Positions 1,652 to 46,239 of a stretch of 64,000 nucleotides of DNA are shown here, piece after piece. Under the pieces are notes generated by a model. The model searched no databases and was not told the origin of the DNA. It was given only the letters and a program-made list of their open reading frames with translations. The DNA is from Erysipelotrichaceae bacterium (GTDB lineage: Bacteria > Bacillota_I > Bacilli_A > RFN20 > CAG-826): the NCBI GenBank assembly GCA_015059185.1, contig SVAY01000006.1, positions 14,070 through 78,069 of the forward strand, in the 5' to 3' direction. Both the position numbers and the translations under genes were made by a program. Every line of letters starts with the position of its first letter. Within the stretch, counting starts at the first letter, position 1.

Positions 1652-3295
1652 TTAGATGAATTTAGAGATATCAACTTCATTAGTGTCAATCTTTGATATT
1701 CTTTCTCTTAAAGCCAAGGTATAGGCTGGAGAGACACTTAATTCATCGATACCAATTTTCACGAAGAACGGTAATAATTCCTCATCTCTAGCAAGTTCAC
1801 CACATATACCAACAGGGATACCCGCTTTATGAGCATTTTCACAAATGATATTAATTAATCTCGTCACCGAACGATGACGCGGATTAAACTGTGCAGTAAG
1901 ATTTGGATTCACTCTATCAAGCGCTAAAGTGTACTGCGTTAAATCATTTGTGCCAATAGAGAAGAAGTCAACTTCTCTAGCAAAGATATCGCTAAGAATA
2001 GCGGCACTAGGAGTTTCAACCATAATACCAATCTTCACATCTTCTTTGTAAAGAAGGCCACGCGCTTTAAGATTGTCTCTCGCTTGTTTAGCCATTTCTT
2101 TAATAAAGTTAATCTCACTTAACGAAATAATCATCGGGACCATAATCGCTAAGTTCCCATAATATGAAGCGCGGTATAGTGCTTGAAGTTGTGTTAAGAA
2201 AATTTGAGGACGCGCTTTACAAATACGAATACTTCTAAAACCAAGCGCTGGATTATCTTCTTCTGGAAGATCAAAGTAATCAATCTTCTTATCTGCTCCA
2301 ATATCTAATGTACGAATAATAACTTGACGAGGCGCCATCGCTTCAACAACGCGTTTATAATGTTCAAATTGTTCTTCTTCCGAAGGATAAGTTGAGTTAT
2401 CTAAATAGATGAATTCACTACGGAAGAGGCCAATACCTTCACTATCATTTTTAATCGCATTTTCTACTTCAAAAGAAGAGGCTATATTGGAATAGATTTC
2501 TAATTTCTTTCCATCTTTAGAAATAGTTGGTTTTCCTTTAAAAGCCTGCAATTTAAGCTTATTTTCTTCATATTGATTCTTAAGTTTTGCATAATCAGTC
2601 ACAATATGAGATTCTGGACCAATTAATAGTTGGGCTTTGTTTGCGTCTAAAATCGCATACTCCCCTTCAAGTTCCTTAGTGACTTCAAAACCATCAATTC
2701 CACAGATAGAAGGAATTTCAAGCATTCTTGTTAAAATCGAGACGTGAGAATTTGTGCCACCTTTTACGAACACAATTCCCAAAATGAGTTTGCGATCAAT
2801 CTTCATAAGCTCACTACTTGGAAGATCATCACAAATGATAATGCTTGGTTCTTTTATAATAAAACCACTACTATCTTTTTTAAGGAAAGAGATGATACGA
2901 GAGCTAACTTCTCTAACGTCATTTGCTCTTTCTTTCATATAAGCATCATCCATTGATGCAAACATATCTGCGAGTTGAGCACCAGCACTTTGGGTCGCAA
3001 ATTCTGCAGTAACGTTATTTTCTAATTCAGCTTTAACCGCGTCTTCGAAATCTAGATCCTCAGCCATCAGCTTATGGGTCTCAAATAACGCTGCTTCTTT
3101 TTCACCAAGCTTTGCCAAAGTCTCCATAAAAGAGGCATCCAACGCTTGTACTGTTTCACTACGTGCTTTTTTAAATCTTTCGAATTCTTTTTCTGGGCCT
3201 AAACCAAAACTTTTTTCGACTTTTTCCTGTTTGTAAACAGCAAGCTTACCTAATGCATAGCCTTCAAATACTCGGCTTCCTTGATAAGTCTTCAT
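1652..3295 (-). CDS. ptsI: PTS enzyme I (phosphoenolpyruvate-protein phosphotransferase)
   Basis: 547 aa, PEP-utilising enzyme family sequence throughout. Confidence 0.9.
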   Translation of the reverse strand: MKTYQGSRVFEGYALGKLAVYKQEKVEKSFGLGPEKEFERFKKARSETVQALDASFMETLAKLGEKEAALFETHKLMAEDLDFEDAVKAELENNVTAEFATQSAGAQLADMFASMDDAYMKERANDVREVSSRIISFLKKDSSGFIIKEPSIIICDDLPSSELMKIDRKLILGIVFVKGGTNSHVSILTRMLEIPSICGIDGFEVTKELEGEYAILDANKAQLLIGPESHIVTDYAKLKNQYEENKLKLQAFKGKPTISKDGKKLEIYSNIASSFEVENAIKNDSEGIGLFRSEFIYLDNSTYPSEEEQFEHYKRVVEAMAPRQVIIRTLDIGADKKIDYFDLPEEDNPALGFRSIRICKARPQIFLTQLQALYRASYYGNLAIMVPMIISLSEINFIKEMAKQARDNLKARGLLYKEDVKIGIMVETPSAAILSDIFAREVDFFSIGTNDLTQYTLALDRVNPNLTAQFNPRHRSVTRLINIICENAHKAGIPVGICGELARDEELLPFFVKIGIDELSVSPAYTLALRERISKIDTNEVDISKFI

Positions 3296-3298
3296 TGT

Positions 3299-3556
3299 TT
3301 ATAAATTTTCCTTAAATATTTTTTCAACAGCGGCTGCTCCGTCTTCTTCGTCAGCCCCTTCAACTTTAATAACTACTTCTTCACCGCATTTAACACATAA
3401 AGACATAACACCGAAGATTCTTTTTAAATCGGCGCTTTTGCCTTTATTTTCAATGGTGAAGTTAGAAGAGTATTTCTTTGCTTCAGCAACAACAACACCG
3501 GCTGGACGTGCATGAATACCTTCTTTGTCAGTAATAACATAACTAAATTGTTTCAT
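3299..3556 (-). CDS. ptsH: phosphocarrier protein HPr
   Basis: 85 aa, His15 context GIHARPA and Ser46 region typical of HPr. Confidence 0.9.
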   Translation of the reverse strand: MKQFSYVITDKEGIHARPAGVVVAEAKKYSSNFTIENKGKSADLKRIFGVMSLCVKCGEEVVIKVEGADEEDGAAAVEKIFKENL

Positions 3557-3614
3557 ATAATGATTCTCCTATATTATTTATCCTAGAGCCCACAAGGGCC
3601 CTAGGAATAAAATA

Positions 3615-5609
3615 TTATTTCTTTTTGAAAAGCTTTTTGATATTAATACCTTTCCATTTACCAAGTTCAGGATTATCGTTATCCTTCTTTAAGATGCCAA
3701 GAAGTATAGCGGTAACAAATGAACCTGCAACAATGGCTAGTAGATAAAGTGGAATAGCCCAACCTGGTTGAATGGTACCTAAAACGAATATACCGCCATG
3801 AGGTGCCAATAATTGACATTGGAATAATCCTGTTAATAAACCAGCGACAAGTGAACCACCGGCACAGCTAACAATAACTCTCCATGGGTCAGCAGCAGCG
3901 AATGGAATAGCGCCTTCAGTGATAAATGAGGCACCCATAACATAATTCACCATCGCATCTCCTCTTTGAGTTTTTGAATATTTTTGAGGGAATAAGTTAG
4001 CACTTAAGGCGATACCAAGAGGTGGCACCATACCACCTGCCATAACAGCAGCCATCATGATATAAGCTTCTGGAGTTTGTGTAGATAAGCTTCCAGCAGC
4101 GAAGACATAAGCAGCTTTATTAATAGGACCACCCATATCGGTTGCCATCATGGTCGCAAGAAGCGCACAAGTGATAACTAATAAGGCAGGTTGTTGACCC
4201 ATATATGTTAATAAGTTATTGAATCCAATATTGACGTAGATTAATGGCGTATTGATGAGATACATTGATCCGCCAATTAAAATCATACCTAAGATTGGAT
4301 AGATAAGCATTGGTTTAAGAGCATCTAATGATTTTGGTAATTTCTTAAACAACCTTCCTAATCCTAGAACAATGTATCCAGCAAGGAAGCCGGCAACAAT
4401 GCCTCCTAAGAACCCTGCATTAGAGCCTTTATCAACGCCCTCAATCGCGTATTGAATATTAAATGTTGAAGTAGTAGCAATAAACCCACCGACCATACCA
4501 ACAGCAAGACCAGGACGACCCGCAATTGAGAAGGCAATGAACCCTGCTAAAATCCATACCATGAAGTTAAAGCCATAACCACCGATAGTTTTAAACCAAG
4601 CAGCAACAGCATTAACACTACCGAAGTTAGGATCTCCAGCATTTCCAGCGATGGTATCAATTAAGAATGCGATAGCAATTAAGATACCTCCACCAATAAC
4701 GAATGGTAACATGTGGCTAACACCACTCATTAAGTGTTTATATATTTGGTGAGCAACTGATCCTTTTTCCCCTTCTTCCTTACTAGCTTCACCACTAGCT
4801 TTATATTTTGGAGTTTCTGGATCAAGCGCTTTATTAATAAGTTTTTCTGGTTCGTGGATACCCTTAGCAACTTTTGCTTGTACAACACGTTTACCGTTAA
4901 ACCTATTCATCTCGACATTGACATCAGCGGCAACGACAATGCCTTCTGCGTGTTCAATTTCCTCTTTGGTAAGTTTATTTTTAATTCCACCAGAGCCATT
5001 AGTTTCAACTTTAATCGATATGCCCATTTCTTTCGCTTTATCTTTCAAAGCTTGTTCAGCCATATAAGTATGAGCAATGCCGGTAGGACAGCCAGTAACA
5101 GCTAAGACACGTGGATAACCACTATCGGCTTCTACTTTTTCTTCTTCAAGTTTTTCGCCTTCGGCTTCATCAATTACTTTTAAGAATGCTTTTGCGTTTT
5201 TAGCTTTTAAGAGTTTATTCTTAAATTCATCATTCATAAGCATTTCACTTAATCTCGCTAATACGTCTAAATGAACATTATCTTCACTATTTGGGGCTGC
5301 GATTAAGAATAATAAGTGCACAGGTTCACCGTCTAAAGAAGCATAGTCAACACCTTCCGGGATGACCATTGCTGCTAAAGCAGGTTTATTAACAACTGAG
5401 CTTTTACAGTGAGGAATAGCAATTCCTTCCCCAATACCTGTTGTTGATTCTTCTTCTCTTTTAAAAACACCATTCTCATAGACTGAAACATCATCAATCG
5501 CGCCTGAATTGGCAATAAGAGAGACAGCTTGTTTAATCACATCAGCTTTAGAATCAGCTTTTGCACCAATCAATACTGTTTTTTCTGATAATAAATCAGT
5601 AATTCTCAT
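3615..5609 (-). CDS. fruA: PTS fructose-specific IIABC component
   Basis: 664 aa with an N-terminal IIA(Fru) domain, a IIB domain with Cys (VTGCPTGIAHT) and a multi-TM IIC domain; RBS GAAAGGAG. Confidence 0.85.
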   Translation of the reverse strand: MRITDLLSEKTVLIGAKADSKADVIKQAVSLIANSGAIDDVSVYENGVFKREEESTTGIGEGIAIPHCKSSVVNKPALAAMVIPEGVDYASLDGEPVHLLFLIAAPNSEDNVHLDVLARLSEMLMNDEFKNKLLKAKNAKAFLKVIDEAEGEKLEEEKVEADSGYPRVLAVTGCPTGIAHTYMAEQALKDKAKEMGISIKVETNGSGGIKNKLTKEEIEHAEGIVVAADVNVEMNRFNGKRVVQAKVAKGIHEPEKLINKALDPETPKYKASGEASKEEGEKGSVAHQIYKHLMSGVSHMLPFVIGGGILIAIAFLIDTIAGNAGDPNFGSVNAVAAWFKTIGGYGFNFMVWILAGFIAFSIAGRPGLAVGMVGGFIATTSTFNIQYAIEGVDKGSNAGFLGGIVAGFLAGYIVLGLGRLFKKLPKSLDALKPMLIYPILGMILIGGSMYLINTPLIYVNIGFNNLLTYMGQQPALLVITCALLATMMATDMGGPINKAAYVFAAGSLSTQTPEAYIMMAAVMAGGMVPPLGIALSANLFPQKYSKTQRGDAMVNYVMGASFITEGAIPFAAADPWRVIVSCAGGSLVAGLLTGLFQCQLLAPHGGIFVLGTIQPGWAIPLYLLAIVAGSFVTAILLGILKKDNDNPELGKWKGINIKKLFKKK

Positions 5610-6765: not shown

Positions 6766-7425
6766 TTAGGAGTGTGGTTTATTGACAGTACCGAAGATTC
6801 TATCACCACAGTCACCTAAGCCTGGGCAGATGTAAGCTTTATCATTGAGTTCTCTATCAAGAGCACCGACATAAAGTGGGATATCTGGATGAGCTTCACA
6901 GAATCTAGCTACACCTTCTGGCGCCGCAATGATACAGATAAAGCTGATTTGTTTAGCACCGTGTCTTCTTAAGATATCAACCGCGCCACAAGCAGATCCG
7001 CCGGTAGCAAGCATTGGGTCGATAAGGTAGATATGACGGTTAGCGATATCATCAGGAAGCTTGCAGTAATATTCAACAGGTTCATGGGTTTCTTCATTTC
7101 TATATAAACCGATGTGACCACAGGTTGCACCTGGAACGAGTTCAAGCATACCATCTTCCATACCTAAGCCTGCTCTAAGGATTGGTACGAAACAGATGCC
7201 TTTTCTACTCACTGATGGTTGCATTGTTTTTTCGATTGGAGTCTCAACTTCTCTTAAGTGAGTTGGGAGATCTCTTAATGCTTCATATCCTTCGATGAAG
7301 GCAATCTCTTTAACAATGGTTCTAAATTCATTTGTTGGAGTGTTCTTATCTCTGAGCTTTGTAATTTTATGTTTGAGCAAAGGATGGTCAAGATAAGTGA
7401 CATTTTTATATTTACTTAAATCCAT
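6766..7425 (-). CDS. upp: uracil phosphoribosyltransferase
   Basis: 219 aa typical Upp sequence; RBS AGAGGTAAA. Confidence 0.85.
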   Translation of the reverse strand: MDLSKYKNVTYLDHPLLKHKITKLRDKNTPTNEFRTIVKEIAFIEGYEALRDLPTHLREVETPIEKTMQPSVSRKGICFVPILRAGLGMEDGMLELVPGATCGHIGLYRNEETHEPVEYYCKLPDDIANRHIYLIDPMLATGGSACGAVDILRRHGAKQISFICIIAAPEGVARFCEAHPDIPLYVGALDRELNDKAYICPGLGDCGDRIFGTVNKPHS

Positions 7426-7514
7426 ATTTTTACCTCTTAAAATAATTCTACATAAATAGGTACAAATAATAAATGTTTATTTTCTTAAAATAATAATTAG
7501 ACTAAAATAGTGAT

Positions 7515-8051
7515 ATGGAATATAAAACAACAATCTTAGATGAATTAGCCTTAAGTAGAACAATCAAGCGTTTAGCTCATGAAATTATTGAACATAATAA
7601 CGGAGTAAACGATTTAATATTAGTCGGTATTAAAACACGTGGCGTACCATTCGCCAGCATCATCAAGGAGCATTTCAAAACTCTTGAAGGTGTTGACGTA
7701 CCACTTGAAGAAATTGATATTACCTTATATCGTGATGACCTCACTGAAGTGAGTAACGATGCAAAGCTTAATCAAGATAAAATCACCACTGACGTAAATG
7801 GAAAAACTGTTATCTTATGTGATGATGTCTTATATACCGGTAGAACATGTCGTGCTGCTATCGACGCTGTACTTAAACATGGTCGGCCAAAATCAATTCA
7901 GTTCGCTGTCATTATTGACCGTGGTCATAGAGAGCTCCCAATTAGAGCGGATTACGTTGGTAAAAACGTACCAACTAGCCATAACGAAATCATCGCTGTT
8001 AAATTTAAAGAAACAGATGATATTAATAGCGTAGAATTATATCAACTCTAA
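7515..8051 (+). CDS. pyrR: bifunctional pyrimidine operon regulator / uracil phosphoribosyltransferase PyrR
   Basis: 178 aa PyrR-family sequence (PRT fold, [13 protein letters not shown]). Confidence 0.8.
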
Positions 8052-8077
8052 TATCTATTAATTAATCATAAAAATAT

Positions 8078-8110
8078 ATAAAAAGGATGGGTCAAGCCCA
8101 TCCATTTTAT
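8078..8110. terminator. bidirectional terminator shared by pyrR (+) and pyrP (-)
   Basis: GGATGGG-TCAAG-CCCATCC hairpin flanked by an A-run and a T-run. Confidence 0.7.
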
Positions 8111-8129
8111 GTTTATAAAACTCAATTAC

Positions 8130-9542
8130 TTATTTTTTTGGACTGTCGTCGCCTTCAGGAATCACGCCTTCTTCTTTTGGTTGACCTTTTTTGAGGTTAA
8201 CCAAGAGGTTAACTAAGATACCTAAGATTAAGGCACAGGCAACTTCAGTAACGGTCACTTGTCCAAACTTGAGGACCATGCCGCCGACACCAGCGATTAA
8301 GATAACAGAGACAACGAATAAGTTTCTATTATCACCGAGGTCGACTGGTTGAATCATCTTAAGTCCGGATACAGCGATGAAGCCGTAGAGGGCGATACAG
8401 ACACCACCCATGACACAGCTTGGGATAGTGGCTAAGAATGTGGCGAATGGTAAGATGAAGCTTAAGACGATGGCCATACAGGCTGTCACTAAGATTGTTC
8501 TTACAGAAGCGTTACCAGAGATAGCAACACATCCAACGGATTCACCATAAGTTGTATTGGCAGCACCACCGAAGAAGGCACCAGCTATAGATCCAACACC
8601 ATCACCTAATAAGGTTCTGTGAAGTCCTGGATCATCTAATAAATCGTGTTCAATGATAGATGATAAGTTTTTGTGGTCGGCAATGTGTTCAGCAAAGACG
8701 ACGAAGGCAACTGGGATATAAGCAACAGCGATTGTGCCTAAGTAAGCACCGAAGTTACCGGCTTCGCCGAAGTCATAATTACCACTGAAGGCAGTTAAGA
8801 ATGTGAAGTCTGGGCACCATCCACCGATGAACTTACCCCATCCTGCTTGTGCGAATAATTCAAAGTTGATAACTTTTAAGGCATCGTTATTAGCAGCATA
8901 ACCGATTCCTGTGAAGATAGCAGCGAGGGCATAACCTGCAGCGATACCAATGATGAATGGAATCATCTTCATCATTTTCTTGCCATAAACTGAGCAAGCA
9001 ATGGTTACAAATAATGTTACTAAGCCACAGATGAGTGCGACAAAGGTATTAGCAGTTGGAACACCTTCAACAGCGAAGGAACCTTTCATTAAATCACCAA
9101 CCGCGTTACCAGCTAAGCTAAGTCCGATAATAGCAACAGTTGGTCCAATAACAACAGCTGGCATGATTTTGTTAATCCATGAAGTGCCACAGAATTTAAC
9201 AACGATTGCAATAGCAACATAGACAAGGCCTGCAAAAGCAGCACCGATGATGAGTCCGAGATAACCAACGGACATAGAGACTGCTCCACCAAAAGCAGCG
9301 AACATACTTCCTAAGAAAGCGAAGGAGCTTCCTAAGAAGACTGGTGATTTGAATTTTGTAAATAACAAGTAAACAATAGTACCAACACCAGCACCGAATA
9401 AAGCTGCAGAAGTACTCATGCCATTTCCAACGATCATTGGAACAGCAATGGTAGCAGCCATAATAGCGAGGAGTTGTTGTAAAGCGAATACTAATGTTTT
9501 GCCCCATGAAGGTTTGTCACTTACGCCGTAAACGAGTTTCAT
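8130..9542 (-). CDS. pyrP: uracil permease (NCS2 family, UraA/PyrP-like)
   Basis: 470 aa multi-TM protein with strong UraA signature blocks (YLGSSFAF, AEH, DPGLHR, NTTYGE); RBS AAGGAG. Confidence 0.8.
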   Translation of the reverse strand: MKLVYGVSDKPSWGKTLVFALQQLLAIMAATIAVPMIVGNGMSTSAALFGAGVGTIVYLLFTKFKSPVFLGSSFAFLGSMFAAFGGAVSMSVGYLGLIIGAAFAGLVYVAIAIVVKFCGTSWINKIMPAVVIGPTVAIIGLSLAGNAVGDLMKGSFAVEGVPTANTFVALICGLVTLFVTIACSVYGKKMMKMIPFIIGIAAGYALAAIFTGIGYAANNDALKVINFELFAQAGWGKFIGGWCPDFTFLTAFSGNYDFGEAGNFGAYLGTIAVAYIPVAFVVFAEHIADHKNLSSIIEHDLLDDPGLHRTLLGDGVGSIAGAFFGGAANTTYGESVGCVAISGNASVRTILVTACMAIVLSFILPFATFLATIPSCVMGGVCIALYGFIAVSGLKMIQPVDLGDNRNLFVVSVILIAGVGGMVLKFGQVTVTEVACALILGILVNLLVNLKKGQPKEEGVIPEGDDSPKK

Positions 9543-9569
9543 ATTTCTTTCTCCTTTTTTCGTTTAGTC

Positions 9570-9703
9570 TAATAAAAACGCCTAGTCGACATCGACCAGG
9601 CGCATAGTATACACTTCACTTGAGTTGTTCTAGCATCTTGTCGATATCTCGTATCGCCTTAAAGACCGTATATATAATAGTAGTATTACTCTTAGCTTGT
9701 CAA
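9570..9703 (-). promoter_or_regulatory. pyrP promoter (TTGACA-18-TATTAT at 9703-9674) and leader carrying an intrinsic terminator (hairpin 9579-9602 plus U-run) about 30 nt upstream of the RBS; candidate attenuator
   Basis: Hexamers and the 11-bp GC-rich stem CGCCUGGUCGA/UCGACUAGGCG followed by UUUUUAUU were read from the sequence; there is no room for a promoter downstream of the hairpin. Confidence 0.45.
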
Positions 9704-18439: not shown

Positions 18440-18562
18440 AACTATTTACCTATCATACGAAATTTATATTGTTACCATAATATTATACGTATTTGATTAA
18501 TATAATTCAAAATTTTAAAATCCCCTCATATGAACTAGTTATTGTTCAGTGGAGGAAAAGTT

Positions 18563-20281
18563 ATGACAATAGAATTCTGGTATTTAATTGGTGCTGCATT
18601 AGTGTTCTTCATGCAAGCAGGCTTTGCAATGGTTGAGACCGGTTTTACGAGAGCAAAAAATGCTGGCAATATCATCATGAAGAACTTGATGGATTTCTGT
18701 ATTGGCACAATCGTCTTCATGTTATTAGGATTTGGTCTTATGATGGGTGAAGATACGCTATTTGGGCTTATCGGTATTCCTAACTTAGATTTATTCACTA
18801 AATTTGCATCATTTATTGAAAGCCCAGCAGATGGTTTTACCGCTGCTTCGACATTTGTGTTTAACCTTGTCTTCTGTGCTACTGCAGCAACTATTGTTTC
18901 TGGTTCAATGGCAGAAAGAACAAGGTTCTTATCTTACTGTATTTATTCCGCAATTATCTCTTTAATCATATACCCAATTGAAGCGCACTGGATTTGGGGT
19001 GGAGGTTGGTTAGCCTCTATCGGTTTTCATGATTACGCTGGCAGCACTGCCATTCATATGGTTGGCGGTATCGCTGCTTTAATTGGAGCAATTTTTCTTG
19101 GTCCACGTATTGGTAAATATGAAAGGGACGAGAATGGAAAAGTTATTAAAGTTAATGCTATTCAAGGTCACTCTATACCTTTAGGTGCCTTGGGTGCATT
19201 TATCTTGTGGTTTGGTTGGTATGGTTTCAATGGTGCTGCTGCCACGACCACAAGCGAATTAGCTACTATTTTCTTGAACACAACTATTGCACCAGCAGTT
19301 GCTACAGTAACTACTATGGTTTTTACATGGATTAAAAACGGTAAGCCTGATGTCTCTATGTGTATCAATGCCTGCCTAGCAGGTTTAGTTGGCGTTACTG
19401 CTGGATGCGCAGCTTTTGACGCCATTGGTTCCACTGTTGTTGGTTTGGTCTCTGGTTTCCTAGTCGTCTTTGTGGTTGAGTTTCTTGATCTTAAGTTACA
19501 TATTGATGATCCAGTCGGTGCGGTTGGTGTTCATATGGCAAACGGTATTTGGGGCACACTTGCAGTTGGCTTATTAGCAAACCCAAATGCTCCAGCAGGT
19601 TTAAACGGCCTCTTCTATACTGGTAATTTCTATCAATTAGGAGTACAAGCTTTAGGTTTTATTTCAGTCGCAACCTATACCGCTATATTTATGACCTTAA
19701 CATTCTTCATTATTAAAAAGACTGTTGGTTTACGCGTTAATAAAGAAGAAGAAATTAAAGGTCTTGATAGTACTGAACATGGCTTAACGAATGCTTATGC
19801 TGATTTTGCAATTGCAGCGAATGCTTATGCTGATTATATTGCCGCCGAACCTGTCATTATTACTGGAGAAGCACCCGTTGCGGAAGCTGTTCCAGTTAAG
19901 AAAAATAAAACATCTTCTAACGGTGTGAAGTTCACTAAAGTAGAGATTATATTCAAAGAAGAAAGACTATATGCTTTAAAAACTGCTATGAGCAAAATTG
20001 GCATTATGGGTATGACGGTGTCACACGTTATGGGTTTTGGTCAACAACAAGGCAAACCTGAATATTATCGTGGTGTTCAAGTTGAAGCGGACTTATTACC
20101 AAAGGTACAAGTCGATATCGTTGTATCTAAGATTCCAGTTAGAACCGTTATCGAAACAGCAAAGAAAGTTCTATATACCGGCAATATCGGTGATGGCAAA
20201 ATCTTTGTTTATGATGTTGAAAATGTCGTCAAGGTAAGAACCGGCGAAGAGGGTTATGATGCTTTGCAAGATGTTGAATGA
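18563..20281 (+). CDS. amt: ammonium transporter (Amt) fused in-frame to a C-terminal P-II (GlnB/GlnK-like) domain
   Basis: The Amt core runs to about residue 410; an Ala/Tyr-rich repeat linker follows; the last ~112 aa align to P-II (GMTVSHVMGFGQQQG...GDGKIFVYDV...RTGEEG); start at ATG 18563 after GGAGGAAAAG. Confidence 0.8.
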   Translation: MTIEFWYLIGAALVFFMQAGFAMVETGFTRAKNAGNIIMKNLMDFCIGTIVFMLLGFGLMMGEDTLFGLIGIPNLDLFTKFASFIESPADGFTAASTFVFNLVFCATAATIVSGSMAERTRFLSYCIYSAIISLIIYPIEAHWIWGGGWLASIGFHDYAGSTAIHMVGGIAALIGAIFLGPRIGKYERDENGKVIKVNAIQGHSIPLGALGAFILWFGWYGFNGAAATTTSELATIFLNTTIAPAVATVTTMVFTWIKNGKPDVSMCINACLAGLVGVTAGCAAFDAIGSTVVGLVSGFLVVFVVEFLDLKLHIDDPVGAVGVHMANGIWGTLAVGLLANPNAPAGLNGLFYTGNFYQLGVQALGFISVATYTAIFMTLTFFIIKKTVGLRVNKEEEIKGLDSTEHGLTNAYADFAIAANAYADYIAAEPVIITGEAPVAEAVPVKKNKTSSNGVKFTKVEIIFKEERLYALKTAMSKIGIMGMTVSHVMGFGQQQGKPEYYRGVQVEADLLPKVQVDIVVSKIPVRTVIETAKKVLYTGNIGDGKIFVYDVENVVKVRTGEEGYDALQDVE

Positions 20282-26855: not shown

Positions 26856-27269
26856 TTACAATCTATTTTCCTCAATCCTATAGGTAATGAAAATAGTTTT
26901 GATATAAGCAGTATGTCTATCGTTTTCTAACAACTTGACTGCTAACTGTATGAAACCTGAACTTTCACCTTTTCTTTTTATGAAATAGTAATAAGTCTCT
27001 TTATGAATGTGACTCTTTACATACCTAACATAACTATGGATGCCATCTGGAATAGATTCAATATCCCTTACTTTAAGCTGATGATCCTTTCTTGCAATAT
27101 GTTCAAATCTTGTTTGATTACTCCTAGCTTGGTCATTTCTCACTATAATTGTAAGATTGTGTTTCTTATCAAATATTGTTTTTGGTAATTTAGCTAGAGC
27201 CTCCATAACATTTTCATCATAATACGAGACTTCTTTCTGCTTCATAAGTGTTTCAATGATAGAACACAA
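26856..27269 (-). CDS. hypothetical 137-aa basic protein; no recognisable SD; possibly a degraded or orphan gene
   Basis: ORF only; no family recognised; no Shine-Dalgarno upstream of any candidate start. Confidence 0.3.
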   Translation of the reverse strand: MCSIIETLMKQKEVSYYDENVMEALAKLPKTIFDKKHNLTIIVRNDQARSNQTRFEHIARKDHQLKVRDIESIPDGIHSYVRYVKSHIHKETYYYFIKRKGESSGFIQLAVKLLENDRHTAYIKTIFITYRIEENRL

Positions 27270-27379: not shown

Positions 27380-27422
27380 TTATGAAAAAAATTAAAAGGA
27401 GAGGTAACCCTCTCCAATTTTG
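27380..27422. terminator. strong (bidirectional) terminator ending the nucleoside-transporter/guaA' operon
   Basis: GGAGAGG-GTTA/TAAC-CCTCTCC hairpin with an A-run upstream and a T-run downstream. Confidence 0.7.
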
Positions 27423-27435
27423 ATAATGATTTATC

Positions 27436-28413
27436 TTATTCCCACTCGATTGTTGCGACTGGTTTTGGTGATAAGTCATATAAGACTCTATTAACACCTT
27501 TAACTTCGTTTAAGATACGATTAACAATCTTATTTAAGATTTCGTATGGGATTGGTTCAATTGTCGCGCTTGTGGCGTCTACTGAGTTAACAGCACGGAT
27601 CACAACTGGCCATTCAAATGTACGTTTATTATCTTTAATACCTGTGCTTCTGAAATCTGGAACGATGGTGAAGTATTGCCATACTTTTCCTTCAAGTCCT
27701 GCATTAGCGAATTCTTCTCTAAGAATCGCGTCTGCTTCTCTTACAGCTTCAAGTCTATCACGGGTAATCGCGCCGACACATCTCACACCAAGACCTGGTC
27801 CTGGGAATGGTTGACGATAGACCATATTATGTGGTAAACCAAGAGCTTCACCAACAACACGAACTTCGTCTTTATATAAGAACTTCACTGGTTCAACGAG
27901 TTCAAACTTAAGATCTTCTGGAAGACCACCAACGTTGTGGTGAGCCTTGATGCCTTTAGATTCTAAGATATCTGGATAAATTGTACCTTGACCTAAGAAA
28001 GCAATACCGTCTAATTTACGAGCTTCTTCAGCGAAGACATCAATGAAGATTTTGCCGATAATTTTACGTTTGGTTTCTGGATCGCTGACACCTGCTAAAG
28101 CATCTAAGAATCTGTCAACTGCGTCAACATAGATTAAGTTTGCACCGAGTTCTTCTTTAAATACTTTGATAACTTGTTCTGGTTCGCCTTTACGTAATAA
28201 GCCATGGTTCACGTGAACACATGTTAAGTTATTACCAATAGCTTTGATTAATAAAGCAGCACAGACTGAGCTATCAACTCCTCCAGAAAGGGCTAATAAC
28301 ACTTTCTTATCACCCACTTGGGCTCTAATTGCTGCAATTTGTTCGGCGATGAATTTATCCGCTAATTCTTTAGTGGTAATTCTTGCCATATTTGGATCTC
28401 TAACATCTGACAT
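27436..28413 (-). CDS. GMP synthase ATP-pyrophosphatase + dimerisation domain only (GuaA C-domain paralog; no glutaminase domain)
   Basis: 325 aa with [19 protein letters not shown] and [10 protein letters not shown] motifs, ending TIEWE; about 60% identical to residues ~200-510 of the full guaA in this window; strong RBS AAGGAGG. Confidence 0.8.
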
Positions 28414-28432
28414 AATAATTCCTCCTTAGAGA

Positions 28433-29416
28433 TTATCTATCTTCACGGAAATATGTAATACCTAATCCAGCCGGTGGTTGAGCGTTCTTTTTATTAAACA
28501 CACTAGTCAAGATTAAGACTAAGATTGTAGCTGCATAAGGTACAATAGAGAACATTTGCATTTGGACAGAACTAAGTGATAAGAAGTTTGGTAACACTTG
28601 TAATGCTCCGAATAAAAGGGAAGCAAAGATACAAATTGTTGGCTTCCACATTGAGAAGATAACAAGTGATAAGGCTAACCAACCAAAGGCATCAACTGCA
28701 TCCTTAGGGTTGAACATACCTTTATATAAATCGATTTCAAGAGCCATACCACCTAAGCCAGCAATTGCTGCACCTAAGATAGTAGCGATGTATCTATATT
28801 TATCAACATTGATACCGGCAGCGTCAGCAGCAGCAGGGTTTTCACCACACGCTCTTAAGTTAAGGCCAACTCTAGTACGGCTGATAATGATTGCAGCAAC
28901 AATAGCAACAATAATAGCAGTGTATGTAAATAAGGATTGAGAGAAGAAGATTTGACCAAACCAGTTTCCACCCCATTCAAATCCGCTTGGGACGAATAAG
29001 GATTGAATCATGAGTCCAGCCTCGCTCATTCTTGTGGTTGGAATTAAACCAATGAAGTAACAGGATAAACCAACACCAAATGTGGTAATGGTAAGACCTG
29101 TAACATTATGATTACACTTTAATGTGACAGTGAAGAAGGAGAATAATAGTCCACCAACGGCAGCAAATAACATTGCAAATAACATTGGCATAAAAAGCAC
29201 TAAGAATGGATTAAGTGCGGTTTCTGGACCGATACTATCAAGATAAACTCTTTCTCCTAAGATACCACCAAGTGCACCAAGATACATGATGCCTGGAATA
29301 CCCATATTTAAGTGTCCACTCTTTTCAGTAATAGTTTCACCAGTACTACCAAAGATGAAGACAGTCGCGAACTTAATCGCTCTAGCAAGGAATGCTACAA
29401 ACATTGTTCCAGTCAT
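28433..29416 (-). CDS. ABC transporter permease (BMP/nucleoside-type, NupC/YufQ-like)
   Basis: 327 aa multi-TM protein in the BMP-ABC operon context. Confidence 0.7.
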   Translation of the reverse strand: MTGTMFVAFLARAIKFATVFIFGSTGETITEKSGHLNMGIPGIMYLGALGGILGERVYLDSIGPETALNPFLVLFMPMLFAMLFAAVGGLLFSFFTVTLKCNHNVTGLTITTFGVGLSCYFIGLIPTTRMSEAGLMIQSLFVPSGFEWGGNWFGQIFFSQSLFTYTAIIVAIVAAIIISRTRVGLNLRACGENPAAADAAGINVDKYRYIATILGAAIAGLGGMALEIDLYKGMFNPKDAVDAFGWLALSLVIFSMWKPTICIFASLLFGALQVLPNFLSLSSVQMQMFSIVPYAATILVLILTSVFNKKNAQPPAGLGITYFREDR

Positions 29417-34431: not shown

Positions 34432-34830
34432 TTAGTAATTATCTATAAAATCTCTTGGGGTTATTATTTTTGGTTTATCTATTTTGAATTCTAATAAATC
34501 CTTATCGCCAGTTATTAAAATATCAGCATCAATTAATAATGCAGCCTCTATAACAGGCACATCATTCTTATCCCTTATCAATATTTCAGTTTTATTACTA
34601 TTAACATGAACAATATTAAGTTGTGGAAGTAAAAAGAAGAGATTACTCACAAATACACCTAAAAGTTCAGGTTTTTTCTTATTAACCACACTATATAATT
34701 CAGATAAACAATAATCTGATGTAAAAAGAGAATATGGGTATTCGCTAGCCTTTATTATGGCTTTACCTGGAATTGAATTAGAATTATAAAATGAAGAAAA
34801 TAGTACATTTGTATCAACAAATACAATCAT
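34432..34830 (-). CDS. vapC: PIN-domain toxin (VapC-like)
   Basis: 132 aa with N-terminal VDTNV and a conserved acidic pattern; 4-bp overlap with the upstream antitoxin gene. Confidence 0.65.
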   Translation of the reverse strand: MIVFVDTNVLFSSFYNSNSIPGKAIIKASEYPYSLFTSDYCLSELYSVVNKKKPELLGVFVSNLFFLLPQLNIVHVNSNKTEILIRDKNDVPVIEAALLIDADILITGDKDLLEFKIDKPKIITPRDFIDNY

Positions 34831-39186: not shown

Positions 39187-39756
39187 TTAACCAAATATTG
39201 GAGTATTGCCGTCAAACGCAACAATATTTGCGCCGCTTACCACTTTAATTCCCATGGCGTTAAGTAATTCTCTACCACCTTGGAAGCTCTTTTCAATTGT
39301 GGCACATACACCGACACAATTCGCGCCACCTTGCTTAATAATCTTGATTAATCCAATTGCGGCATTGCCCTTAGCTAGGAAATCATCCACTATTAAGATA
39401 TTTTCATTTGGTAAGATGTATTTCTTGCTGACTGTAACTGTACTAACAGTACCTCTCGTGAAACTTCTTACTTCTTCACTATACACATCTTCATCAACAA
39501 TTTTTGATTTACTCTTTTTTGCAAACACCATATTAACATCTAAGATAGAAGCAACCGCGTAAGCAATTGGAATGCCACTTGTCTCTAATGTTAAAACTTT
39601 ATCAATTCTTGTATCTTTAAATTGATCAACAAAATATCTTGCTAATTCATTAGTGATACTTGGGTTCACTTGATGATTAACGAAAGAATCAACTTTAATG
39701 ATTTCTCCATCAAGTATCTTTCCATATTTACTAATTGCTTCTTCAATAATTTTCAT
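39187..39756 (-). CDS. xpt: xanthine phosphoribosyltransferase
   Basis: 189 aa Xpt-type PRT (ILIVDDFLAKGNA); RBS GAGGT. Confidence 0.8.
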   Translation of the reverse strand: MKIIEEAISKYGKILDGEIIKVDSFVNHQVNPSITNELARYFVDQFKDTRIDKVLTLETSGIPIAYAVASILDVNMVFAKKSKSKIVDEDVYSEEVRSFTRGTVSTVTVSKKYILPNENILIVDDFLAKGNAAIGLIKIIKQGGANCVGVCATIEKSFQGGRELLNAMGIKVVSGANIVAFDGNTPIFG

Positions 39757-45765: not shown

Positions 45766-45850
45766 TGGTGCGGCTAGCAGGAATCGAACCTGTACGGGTT
45801 GCCCCACTAGATCCTAAGTCTAGCGCGTCTGCCAGTTCCGCCATAGCCGC
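45766..45850 (-). tRNA. tRNA-Leu (anticodon TAG)
   Basis: Hand-folded 85-nt cloverleaf with long variable arm, anticodon loop CUUAGGA, encoded CCA. Confidence 0.8.
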
Positions 45851-45891
45851 AAATAGTTAACCCCTCTAAATAGAGGGGTATTTCTTTAAAT

Positions 45892-45967
45892 TGGTGCCGT
45901 CTATCGGAATCGAACCAACAACCTACTGATTACAAATCAGTTGCTCTGCCAATTGAGCTAAGACGGC
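45892..45967 (-). tRNA. tRNA-Thr (anticodon TGT)
   Basis: 76-nt cloverleaf, anticodon loop UUUGUAA, T-loop TTCGATT, encoded CCA. Confidence 0.75.
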
Positions 45968-45976
45968 ATTTCTTTT

Positions 45977-46051
45977 TGGTGGACACTACAGGGATCGAAC
46001 CTGTGACCTCTTCCGTGTGAAGGAAGCGTTCTCCCGCTGAACTAAGTGTCC
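45977..46051 (-). tRNA. tRNA-Val (anticodon CAC)
   Basis: 75-nt cloverleaf, anticodon loop UUCACAC, encoded CCA. Confidence 0.75.
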
Positions 46052-46162
46052 AATCGCTTATTAATACTACCAAACACTTTTCCTTTTTTCAATTGATAAG
46101 GCTGAGGTCGGGGGTTCTTATAAAAAATAAACCATGGAAGGTTTACTTTTTTAAAATCCATT

Positions 46163-46239
<77 letters not shown>

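Follow-up and report, generated by a model that had tools for sequence, protein, structure and literature searches.

The last gene of a riboswitch-controlled operon in a 64,000-nucleotide (nt) stretch of an Erysipelotrichaceae genome (contig SVAY01000006.1, positions 14,070 to 78,069; hereafter, the window) encodes a 325-amino-acid (aa) protein that corresponds to the synthetase half of GuaA, the guanosine monophosphate (GMP) synthetase (GMPS). Because the glutaminase domain has been lost and the catalytic residues have been retained, we consider it probable that this protein and its relatives are self-sufficient, glutamine-independent GMPS enzymes, which make GMP from xanthosine monophosphate (XMP) with free ammonia (NH3), that is, by the Enzyme Commission (EC) 6.3.4.1 reaction. 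According to a review (PMC10526850), GMPS is a glutamine amidotransferase, of which bacteria have a fused form and many archaea a split one. The family described here appears to represent a third widespread state of GMPS, namely, a paralogue in which the glutaminase is discarded or dead and the catalytic centre is complete, and which exists beside the normal enzyme. Relatives were sought in one genome per GTDB species, which returned at least 583 of them; the locus counts given below rest on the best 80 (the 80 loci, designated by L numbers).

An intact synthetase without a glutaminase

The 325-aa open reading frame (ORF) opens with ATG and its frame is intact. All GuaA motifs quoted in the initial annotation were found in it, including the ATIEWE C-terminal end, with the PP-loop SGGVDSS occupying residues 42-48. 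Pfam recognizes GMP_synt_C (PF00958; 122 bits) and PP-loop families, the NCBIfam model guaA_Cterm (TIGR00884) is matched with 444 bits at a cut-off of 339, and the full-length NCBIfam guaA model aligns to the protein only at model positions 188-512. The amidotransferase domain had been described as entirely lacking and, indeed, neither Pfam nor NCBIfam yields any match to the glutamine amidotransferase (GATase) domain: the protein begins 18 residues ahead of the synthetase core, and the class-I GATase domain with its Cys-His-Glu triad is missing. A full-length guaA of 510 aa also resides in the window, as had been stated, and the claimed identity of about 60% between the two was measured as 57% over 313 residues (guaA residues 198-510; E = 5e-121 in BLASTP).

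The proposed position in the operon was borne out, with a purine riboswitch followed by a Bmp binding protein, an ABC (ATP-binding cassette) transporter ATPase, two permeases and, in the last position, the glutaminase-less GuaA gene (Table 1). The 19-bp spacing to the last permease gene, the stop of which lies at 28433, proved to be exact, the ribosome-binding site (RBS) AAGGAGG is strong as claimed, and no convincing promoter was found within the 19-nt gap at 28414-28432. The C kept at the specificity position indicates, at the sequence level, a riboswitch of the guanine type. This organization supports a 325-aa gene that is real and intact, and that is predicted to be expressed from the riboswitch-controlled operon. 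The gene does not share an operon with the native guaA, which speaks for a function of its own.

Residues listed in a review of GMPS (PMC10526850) were scored in a 40-sequence family alignment, in which SGGxDSS, PDxxES, the lid motif K-x-HHN and KDEVR are invariant, as are the Arg of KRKIIG, the Q of WQYF, the R of VNRV and the C-terminal K...I-E-W-E. The window protein has YPDILES, IKAHHN, KDEVR and VNRVLYD at the corresponding sites, the XMP-contact residues R115, K316, E322, E324 and R308 are invariant in the family, and SGGxDSS is present in all 301 family members. The AlphaFold model (predicted local distance difference test score 83, confident except for the lid) matches the ATP-pyrophosphatase (ATPPase) structures of GMPS 7SBC, 1GPM and 6JP9 with template modelling scores of 0.80-0.83. 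Given that the catalytic and substrate residues are present and invariant, and that the model matches the GMPS ATPPase structures, the enzyme is likely to be active.

Apart from the missing domain, the family is set off from canonical GuaA by a signature of its own. HVNHG stands in place of FVDxG in 299 of 301 family members versus 1 of 108 canonical GuaA sequences, and GAITRDRL occurs in 266 of 301 versus 0 of 108. The synthetase half of bacterial GuaA (EC 6.3.5.2; E. coli 1GPM, A. baumannii 7SBC) has the same fold and is 52-59% identical, and it shares with the family the PP-loop, the lid HHN, KDEVR, the XMP-binding residues and the dimerisation domain; the clade, moreover, branches within bacterial GuaA. 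Unlike bacterial GuaA, the family has no glutaminase domain, and hence neither glutamine hydrolysis nor an ammonia channel, its lid loop is shorter by 5-8 residues, a conserved N-terminal extension of 18 residues precedes the core of the 325-aa form, and two loops have been replaced by [IV]xD[GN]xR and KPxxT.

Archaeal GuaAB (M. jannaschii 6JP9, P. horikoshii 2DPL/3A4I) shares with the family the stand-alone build (about 310 aa), the short lid and WQYF, and its isolated subunit uses NH4+ in vitro (PMC10526850). The family differs from it in belonging to another clade, in having no linked GuaAA that we could see, and in coexisting with a complete native GMPS; in addition, the R-loop, which reads GVKGDER in M. 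jannaschii GuaAB, is rewritten in the family. A functional analogy, and only that, is offered by the NAD+ synthetase NadE, a PP-loop amidating enzyme of a different family and with a different substrate, which occurs both with a glutaminase module and in a form lacking it. The use of free ammonia by module-less NadE is experimentally established, whereas ammonia use by the present family is predicted from sequence.

Spread, sister form and origin

A word-indexed search returned at least 120 clusters of 325-326 aa at 84-100% identity, from Erysipelotrichaceae and other metagenome-assembled genomes (MAGs) of Bacilli. The best 80 of the at least 583 relatives are 76-86% identical to the window protein, and their hosts are rumen, gut and digester MAGs labelled as Bacilli, many Clostridia families, Spirochaetes and Lentisphaeria, as well as Thermoguttaceae (Planctomycetes), Bacteroidaceae and Prevotella (Bacteroidota), Thermoplasmata and Methanomethylophilaceae. 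One cultured rumen isolate with a family member is Aristaeella hokkaidonensis. Many carriers are gut or rumen organisms, abundant Bacteroidales and methanogens among them. The ORF is stand-alone (~325 aa) in all 80 loci, which share the N-terminal motif M..N[VK]RP..M.RITT..LA..FI.EQ. The archaeal nature of the two methanogen contigs is borne out by genes for an intein-containing MCM, an archaeal RecJ and the YcaO of McrA thioamidation. The intein interrupts the archaeal MCM helicase gene at 6976-9588 (+) of L061, the Methanomethylophilaceae contig that also holds a native GuaAB and a family member. No family member was found in the phage set.

A sister form of 429-435 aa, found in Bacteroides finegoldii and Subdoligranulum variabile, carries the clade signature over its C-terminal 310 residues and retains a remnant of the glutaminase. 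Its N-terminal ~125 residues, the first 40% of a class-I GATase, cover no more than positions 1-76 of the GATase profile (190 positions) and include none of the catalytic residues Cys, His and Glu; therefore, no working glutaminase is possible there. As in the 325-aa form, HVNHG (98/99) and GAITRDRL (97/99) are present in the ~430-aa form (e.g. WP_055279793.1 of B. finegoldii) and GVxGDxR is not; the ~430-aa form is 72-76% identical to the window protein over the part they share, and it, too, is annotated as 'glutamine-hydrolyzing GMP synthase'. Unlike the 325-aa form, it has kept IKSHHN and DAMTA, in addition to the N-terminal residues, and lacks the RITT...LA insertion; at the T/S position of the lid IK(T/S)HHN, most 325-aa members have Ala, and the ~430-aa form has Ser. 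The S. variabile protein is 88% identical to one 325-aa member over the shared region, and the two forms are therefore intermixed within one clade. The ~430-aa form is abundant in Bacteroidales, where its clusters comprise 2,000-4,900 member sequences, and it also occurs in some Clostridia; in Parabacteroides gordonii and S. variabile it directly follows full-length guaA.

Three records of a plasmid collection match at 73-75% identity (B. finegoldii, S. variabile and Parabacteroides distasonis), the first two of which yielded the 429-435-aa proteins. Plasmid carriage was rejected, as the S. variabile record examined has a full-length guaA alongside and looks chromosomal, and the Enterococcus faecium plasmid matches turned out to be ordinary full-length guaA genes rather than family members. 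Separately, ten distant GuaA-like proteins of the FVD type (P0142, P0146, P0150, P0167, P0182, P0201, P0210, P0218, P0231 and P0267; ~420-440 aa, 49-58% identity) have an N-terminus of 130-150 residues that resembles the GATase start, falls below the Pfam model and is missing the catalytic motifs. Judging by such sequences, glutaminase decay in GuaA paralogues may have occurred several times.

The parallel with archaeal GuaAB drawn in the initial annotation did not hold in our trees, which are neighbour-joining (NJ) distance trees only, with 100 bootstraps. The clade came out as monophyletic in all 100 bootstraps and as the sister of archaeal GuaAB in none of them; it nests among bacterial GuaA, with GuaA-type sequences of bacteria, mostly full-length, closest to it. 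With the trees and the bootstrap against it, an origin from archaeal GuaAB was rejected, the short lid and the WQYF common to M. jannaschii being unsupported by the tree.

Nor did a recent horizontal acquisition in this genome withstand the analysis of base composition. The guanine plus cytosine (GC) content of the gene is slightly raised, as had been noticed (0.396 versus 0.354 in the rest of the window), but an offset of about +0.04 characterizes all 80 related loci, and the GC bump is therefore no sign of foreign origin. GC at third codon positions (GC3) is native-like, with 0.276 in the gene versus 0.263 in the C-terminal half of native guaA, and gene GC tracks host GC across the family (r = 0.96; GC3 range 0.08-0.88). 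Since their composition matches that of the hosts, the copies are old residents. Synonymous positions are saturated and the protein sequence is conserved, and the family appears to be under strong purifying selection. When the same genome pairs are compared, the family copies are 80% identical versus 61% for the native copies, methanogen versus Clostridia pairs behaving alike, and the near neighbours of non-Firmicutes copies are Clostridia copies at 83-90% identity. Because of this excess identity and of the Clostridia-like copies outside Firmicutes, the family has evidently moved horizontally between phyla and between domains, with full amelioration and strong purifying selection thereafter.

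In 9 of the 80 loci, the gene is followed by an integrase. In S. variabile (L086, OY725880.1 28000-77900), the last 12 nt of the glutaminase-less guaA variant harbour the insertion of an 8,011-bp element with an XRE-type helix-turn-helix gene, a tyrosine integrase and tet(W), present in two tandem copies. One core, GAGTGGGAGTGA, marks both the end of the gene and the junction of the copies; the other, GAGTGGGAATAA, lies at the far end (attL/attR). The same gene order recurs in L082 (5939-8138) and in the 9 of 80 loci, e.g. L016 (10945-13200), and the conserved ...EWE-stop end of the family serves as attachment site. Integrases that target the guaA 3′ end are already known (PMC5704250). We therefore rejected the view of the gene as cargo of a mobile element, since the downstream integrases are explained by site-specific insertion that uses the conserved 3′ end.

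The immediate neighbours of the gene vary, with genes of purine metabolism recurring among them. The commonest is xpt, which adjoins it in 10 of 80 loci, followed by hpt and guaB (3 each); in 7 loci, native guaA or GuaAB stands next to it or close by. The family member follows guaA in L016, L029 and L032 and native GuaAB in L061; purE is a neighbour in L061, as are purC and purE in L063, the latter locus having the order purine riboswitch, purC, family gene. The link with nucleoside uptake, by contrast, is not a trait of the family, because a Bmp-ABC transporter is nearby in only 3 of 80 loci and shares an operon with the gene only in L003, which repeats the order of the window (riboswitch, transporter, family gene, then xpt). 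With the glutaminase domain of GuaA as tblastn query, no linked GuaAA-like glutaminase gene was found in the 64-kb window or in the 80 loci: the matches were confined to the N-termini of full-length guaA in 6 of the 80 loci and to native guaA in the window.

Free ammonia as the probable nitrogen donor and competing explanations

In the mechanism that we favour, a homodimer would bind ATP-Mg and XMP, adenyl-XMP would be formed at the PP-loop site beneath the shortened lid loop, and free NH3 of the cytoplasm would attack C2 to give GMP, adenosine monophosphate and pyrophosphate, with no glutaminase involved. The guanine-type riboswitch would turn the gene on, together with the nucleoside ABC importer, when purines are scarce; the housekeeping glutamine-dependent guaA lies in the separate purA-purB-guaA operon. 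The protein is part of a bacterial-derived clade of GuaA paralogues that have lost glutaminase function, leaving either a dead stub (~430 aa) or no such domain at all (~325 aa), and the clade has spread among gut and rumen anaerobes, methanogenic archaea included. Gut and rumen contents are generally rich in ammonia, the direct use of which would save the ATP cost of glutamine in these energy-poor habitats. The analysis shows the domain content, the conserved catalytic residues, the clade and its distribution, the gene neighbourhoods and the regulation; that NH3 donates the nitrogen, that the protein is a homodimer and that this brings a selective advantage is what we infer.

In line with this mechanism, external NH4+ is accepted in vitro both by isolated ATPPase units and by two-domain GMPS (PMC10526850). 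The ammonia reading is further strengthened by the large conserved clade, the sister form with its triad-less stub, the lack of a linked GuaAA, the invariant residues and the purine neighbours. If the family is indeed driven by ammonia, it would constitute an enzyme-level link from the ammonia-rich gut habitat to nucleotide synthesis, and it would provide a natural experiment on the need for the glutaminase, the lid loop and the dimer loops. Moreover, the label 'glutamine-hydrolyzing', which databases attach to the family, would be corrected as a systematic misannotation.

Several points weigh against free ammonia as the donor. All GMPS studied prefer glutamine as donor, and their Km values for NH4+ range from millimolar to 100-millimolar (PMC10526850). 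The acidic pair of alpha-12 (KDEVR), which contacts the glutaminase in PfGMPS (PMC10526850), is still conserved, and a docking surface for a glutaminase may thus persist. Co-transcription with the normal guaA, as in Bacteroidales, is not obviously needed by a simple isozyme. The motif GVxGDxR, which is called invariant and supplies the Arg of the neighbouring chain (in trans) to the XMP phosphate (PMC10526850), is present in 0 of 301 family members versus 70 of 108 canonical GuaA sequences; the equivalent loop is G[IV]xD[GN]xR in the family and GIKDNKR in the window protein, with the Arg retained. Likewise, the C-terminal loop KPPxT is found in 2 of 301 versus 98 of 108, the family having KPxxT. 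Such rewritten XMP-phosphate loops could reflect a change of substrate and not just one of the dimer interface. Finally, the search for GuaAA covered linked DNA only (the window and the 80 loci).

The retained interface motifs KDEVR and DxxES, together with an architecture and short lid loop that resemble M. jannaschii GuaAB, would suit a synthetase that relies on a free-standing class-I glutaminase of the GuaAA kind, encoded by an unlinked gene and docking transiently, which is the arrangement of Methanocaldococcus and Pyrococcus. In archaea the association of the subunits is transient only, and linkage of their genes is not required (PMC10526850). We nonetheless regard this arrangement as unlikely, in view of the absence of a GuaAA-like ORF from the 64-kb window and of an adjoining one from the 80 loci, the truncated triad-less stub that the closest sister form has in cis, and the position of the clade, which never appeared as sister to archaeal GuaAB in the bootstraps. 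The methanogen contig L061, in addition, holds a separate native GuaAB beside the family member.

The tandem position after guaA in Parabacteroides, Subdoligranulum, L016, L029 and L032, and after native GuaAB in L061, raises the question of whether the protein pairs with native full-length GuaA, by way of the C-terminal dimerisation domain, in a mixed dimer and so tunes or shares the activity of the latter, all the more so as the XMP site of GMPS spans the dimer (PMC10526850). This seems quite improbable to us: the gene is unlinked to guaA and separately regulated in the window, and unlinked in most loci, all catalytic residues are invariant, which would be unexpected for a purely regulatory subunit, and three interface or XMP-loop segments have been rewritten together, a pattern closer to insulation from native GuaA than to pairing.

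The same rewriting can be turned into an argument for repurposing, in which a xanthine-type nucleotide would still be adenylated, but the substrate would differ at its phosphate end or the nucleophile would not be ammonia. The phosphate-contacting and C-terminal loops are changed clade-wide, HVN replaces FVD beside the PP-loop strand, and the very tight conservation of the clade suggests a demanding specificity. Yet the base-discriminating Arg, the Gln and the C-terminal Lys/Ile/Glu contacts to XMP are kept, the neighbours are ordinary XMP/GMP genes (xpt, guaB and guaA), and the NCBIfam guaA_Cterm score is well over the cut-off, so that we give repurposing only a slim chance. Much the same small likelihood attaches to the proposal that the clade aminates a different xanthine nucleotide, or draws its nitrogen from a donor that is neither free NH3 nor a class-I glutaminase, to which the clade-wide rewriting of two XMP-phosphate loops and the unusually tight conservation across phyla and domains would point; if true, it would mean a new purine reaction common to gut and rumen microbes. 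As for a decaying, truncated guaA duplicate, half of the ancestral protein is missing, but a pseudogene can be dismissed, since the frame is intact with its own strong RBS and terminator, the stand-alone 325-aa form recurs in more than 580 GTDB species genomes (the best 80 at 76-86% identity), its N-terminal motif is conserved, and synonymous positions are saturated in a conserved protein.

Earlier records and other features of the window

A second 'putative' GMP synthase in Bacteroides is listed in Swiss-Prot, and the sequence is thus probably known to curators as an uncharacterised one. Our full-text literature searches found no description of a glutaminase-less GuaA family, and the matches to 'guaA2' were rejected, as they refer to the E. 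coli allele guaA21. In a functional-metagenomics screen, the B. thetaiotaomicron 'GMP synthase' BT_4265 raised the fitness of E. coli in the mouse gut (PMC4380924); BT_4265 may be either the normal guaA or the glutaminase-less paralogue.

The features of the operon and of the related purine genes are collected in Table 1.

Table 1. Features of the window that bear on the glutaminase-less GuaA gene
Feature	Position	Strand	Remark
Native two-domain guaA (GATase + ATPPase), 510 aa	23210..24742	+	Third gene of purA-purB-guaA; housekeeping enzyme
Intrinsic-terminator-like hairpin GGAGAGG/CCTCTCC, then T run	27398..27415	-	20 nt past the stop codon; operon end
Stand-alone GuaA synthetase (ATP-pyrophosphatase + dimerisation) paralogue, 325 aa	27436..28413	-	No glutaminase domain; clade signature including N-terminal R-x-P-x-M-x-R-I-T-T...F-I-x and KPVAT
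19-nt intergenic gap with RBS AAGGAGG at 28427-28421	28414..28432	-	RBS 7 nt ahead of ATG
ABC permease (BPD_transp_2), fourth operon gene	28433..29416	-	Pfam
ABC permease (BPD_transp_2), 480 aa	29419..30861	-	Pfam
ABC ATPase, duplicated ATP-binding cassettes, 604 aa	30861..32675	-	Pfam
Bmp/PnrA-like substrate-binding protein, nucleoside type, 446 aa	32742..34082	-	Pfam
Purine riboswitch aptamer RF00167	34182..34279	-	43.9 bits versus gathering score 37; operon leader
Xanthine phosphoribosyltransferase xpt	39187..39756	-	XMP source via salvage

No NCBIfam model matches the Bmp-type binding protein. For a nucleoside ABC system of the Bmp/Nup type, the 446-aa binding protein, the 604-aa ATPase and the 480-aa first permease strike us as long, which is an impression only. 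Both xpt, about 11 kb off, and the Amt-PII gene lie in the same window, in agreement with the initial annotation. The latter, at 18542-20281 (+) and directly upstream of purA-purB-guaA, is a single ORF of 579 aa in which an Amt ammonium channel is joined to a P-II nitrogen-regulator domain. A PIN-domain gene is situated just upstream of the riboswitch, at 34432-34830 (-), and a 137-aa ORF without a Pfam or NCBIfam match just downstream of the terminator, at 26856-27269 (-). Four tRNA genes are clustered at 45769-46239 (-).

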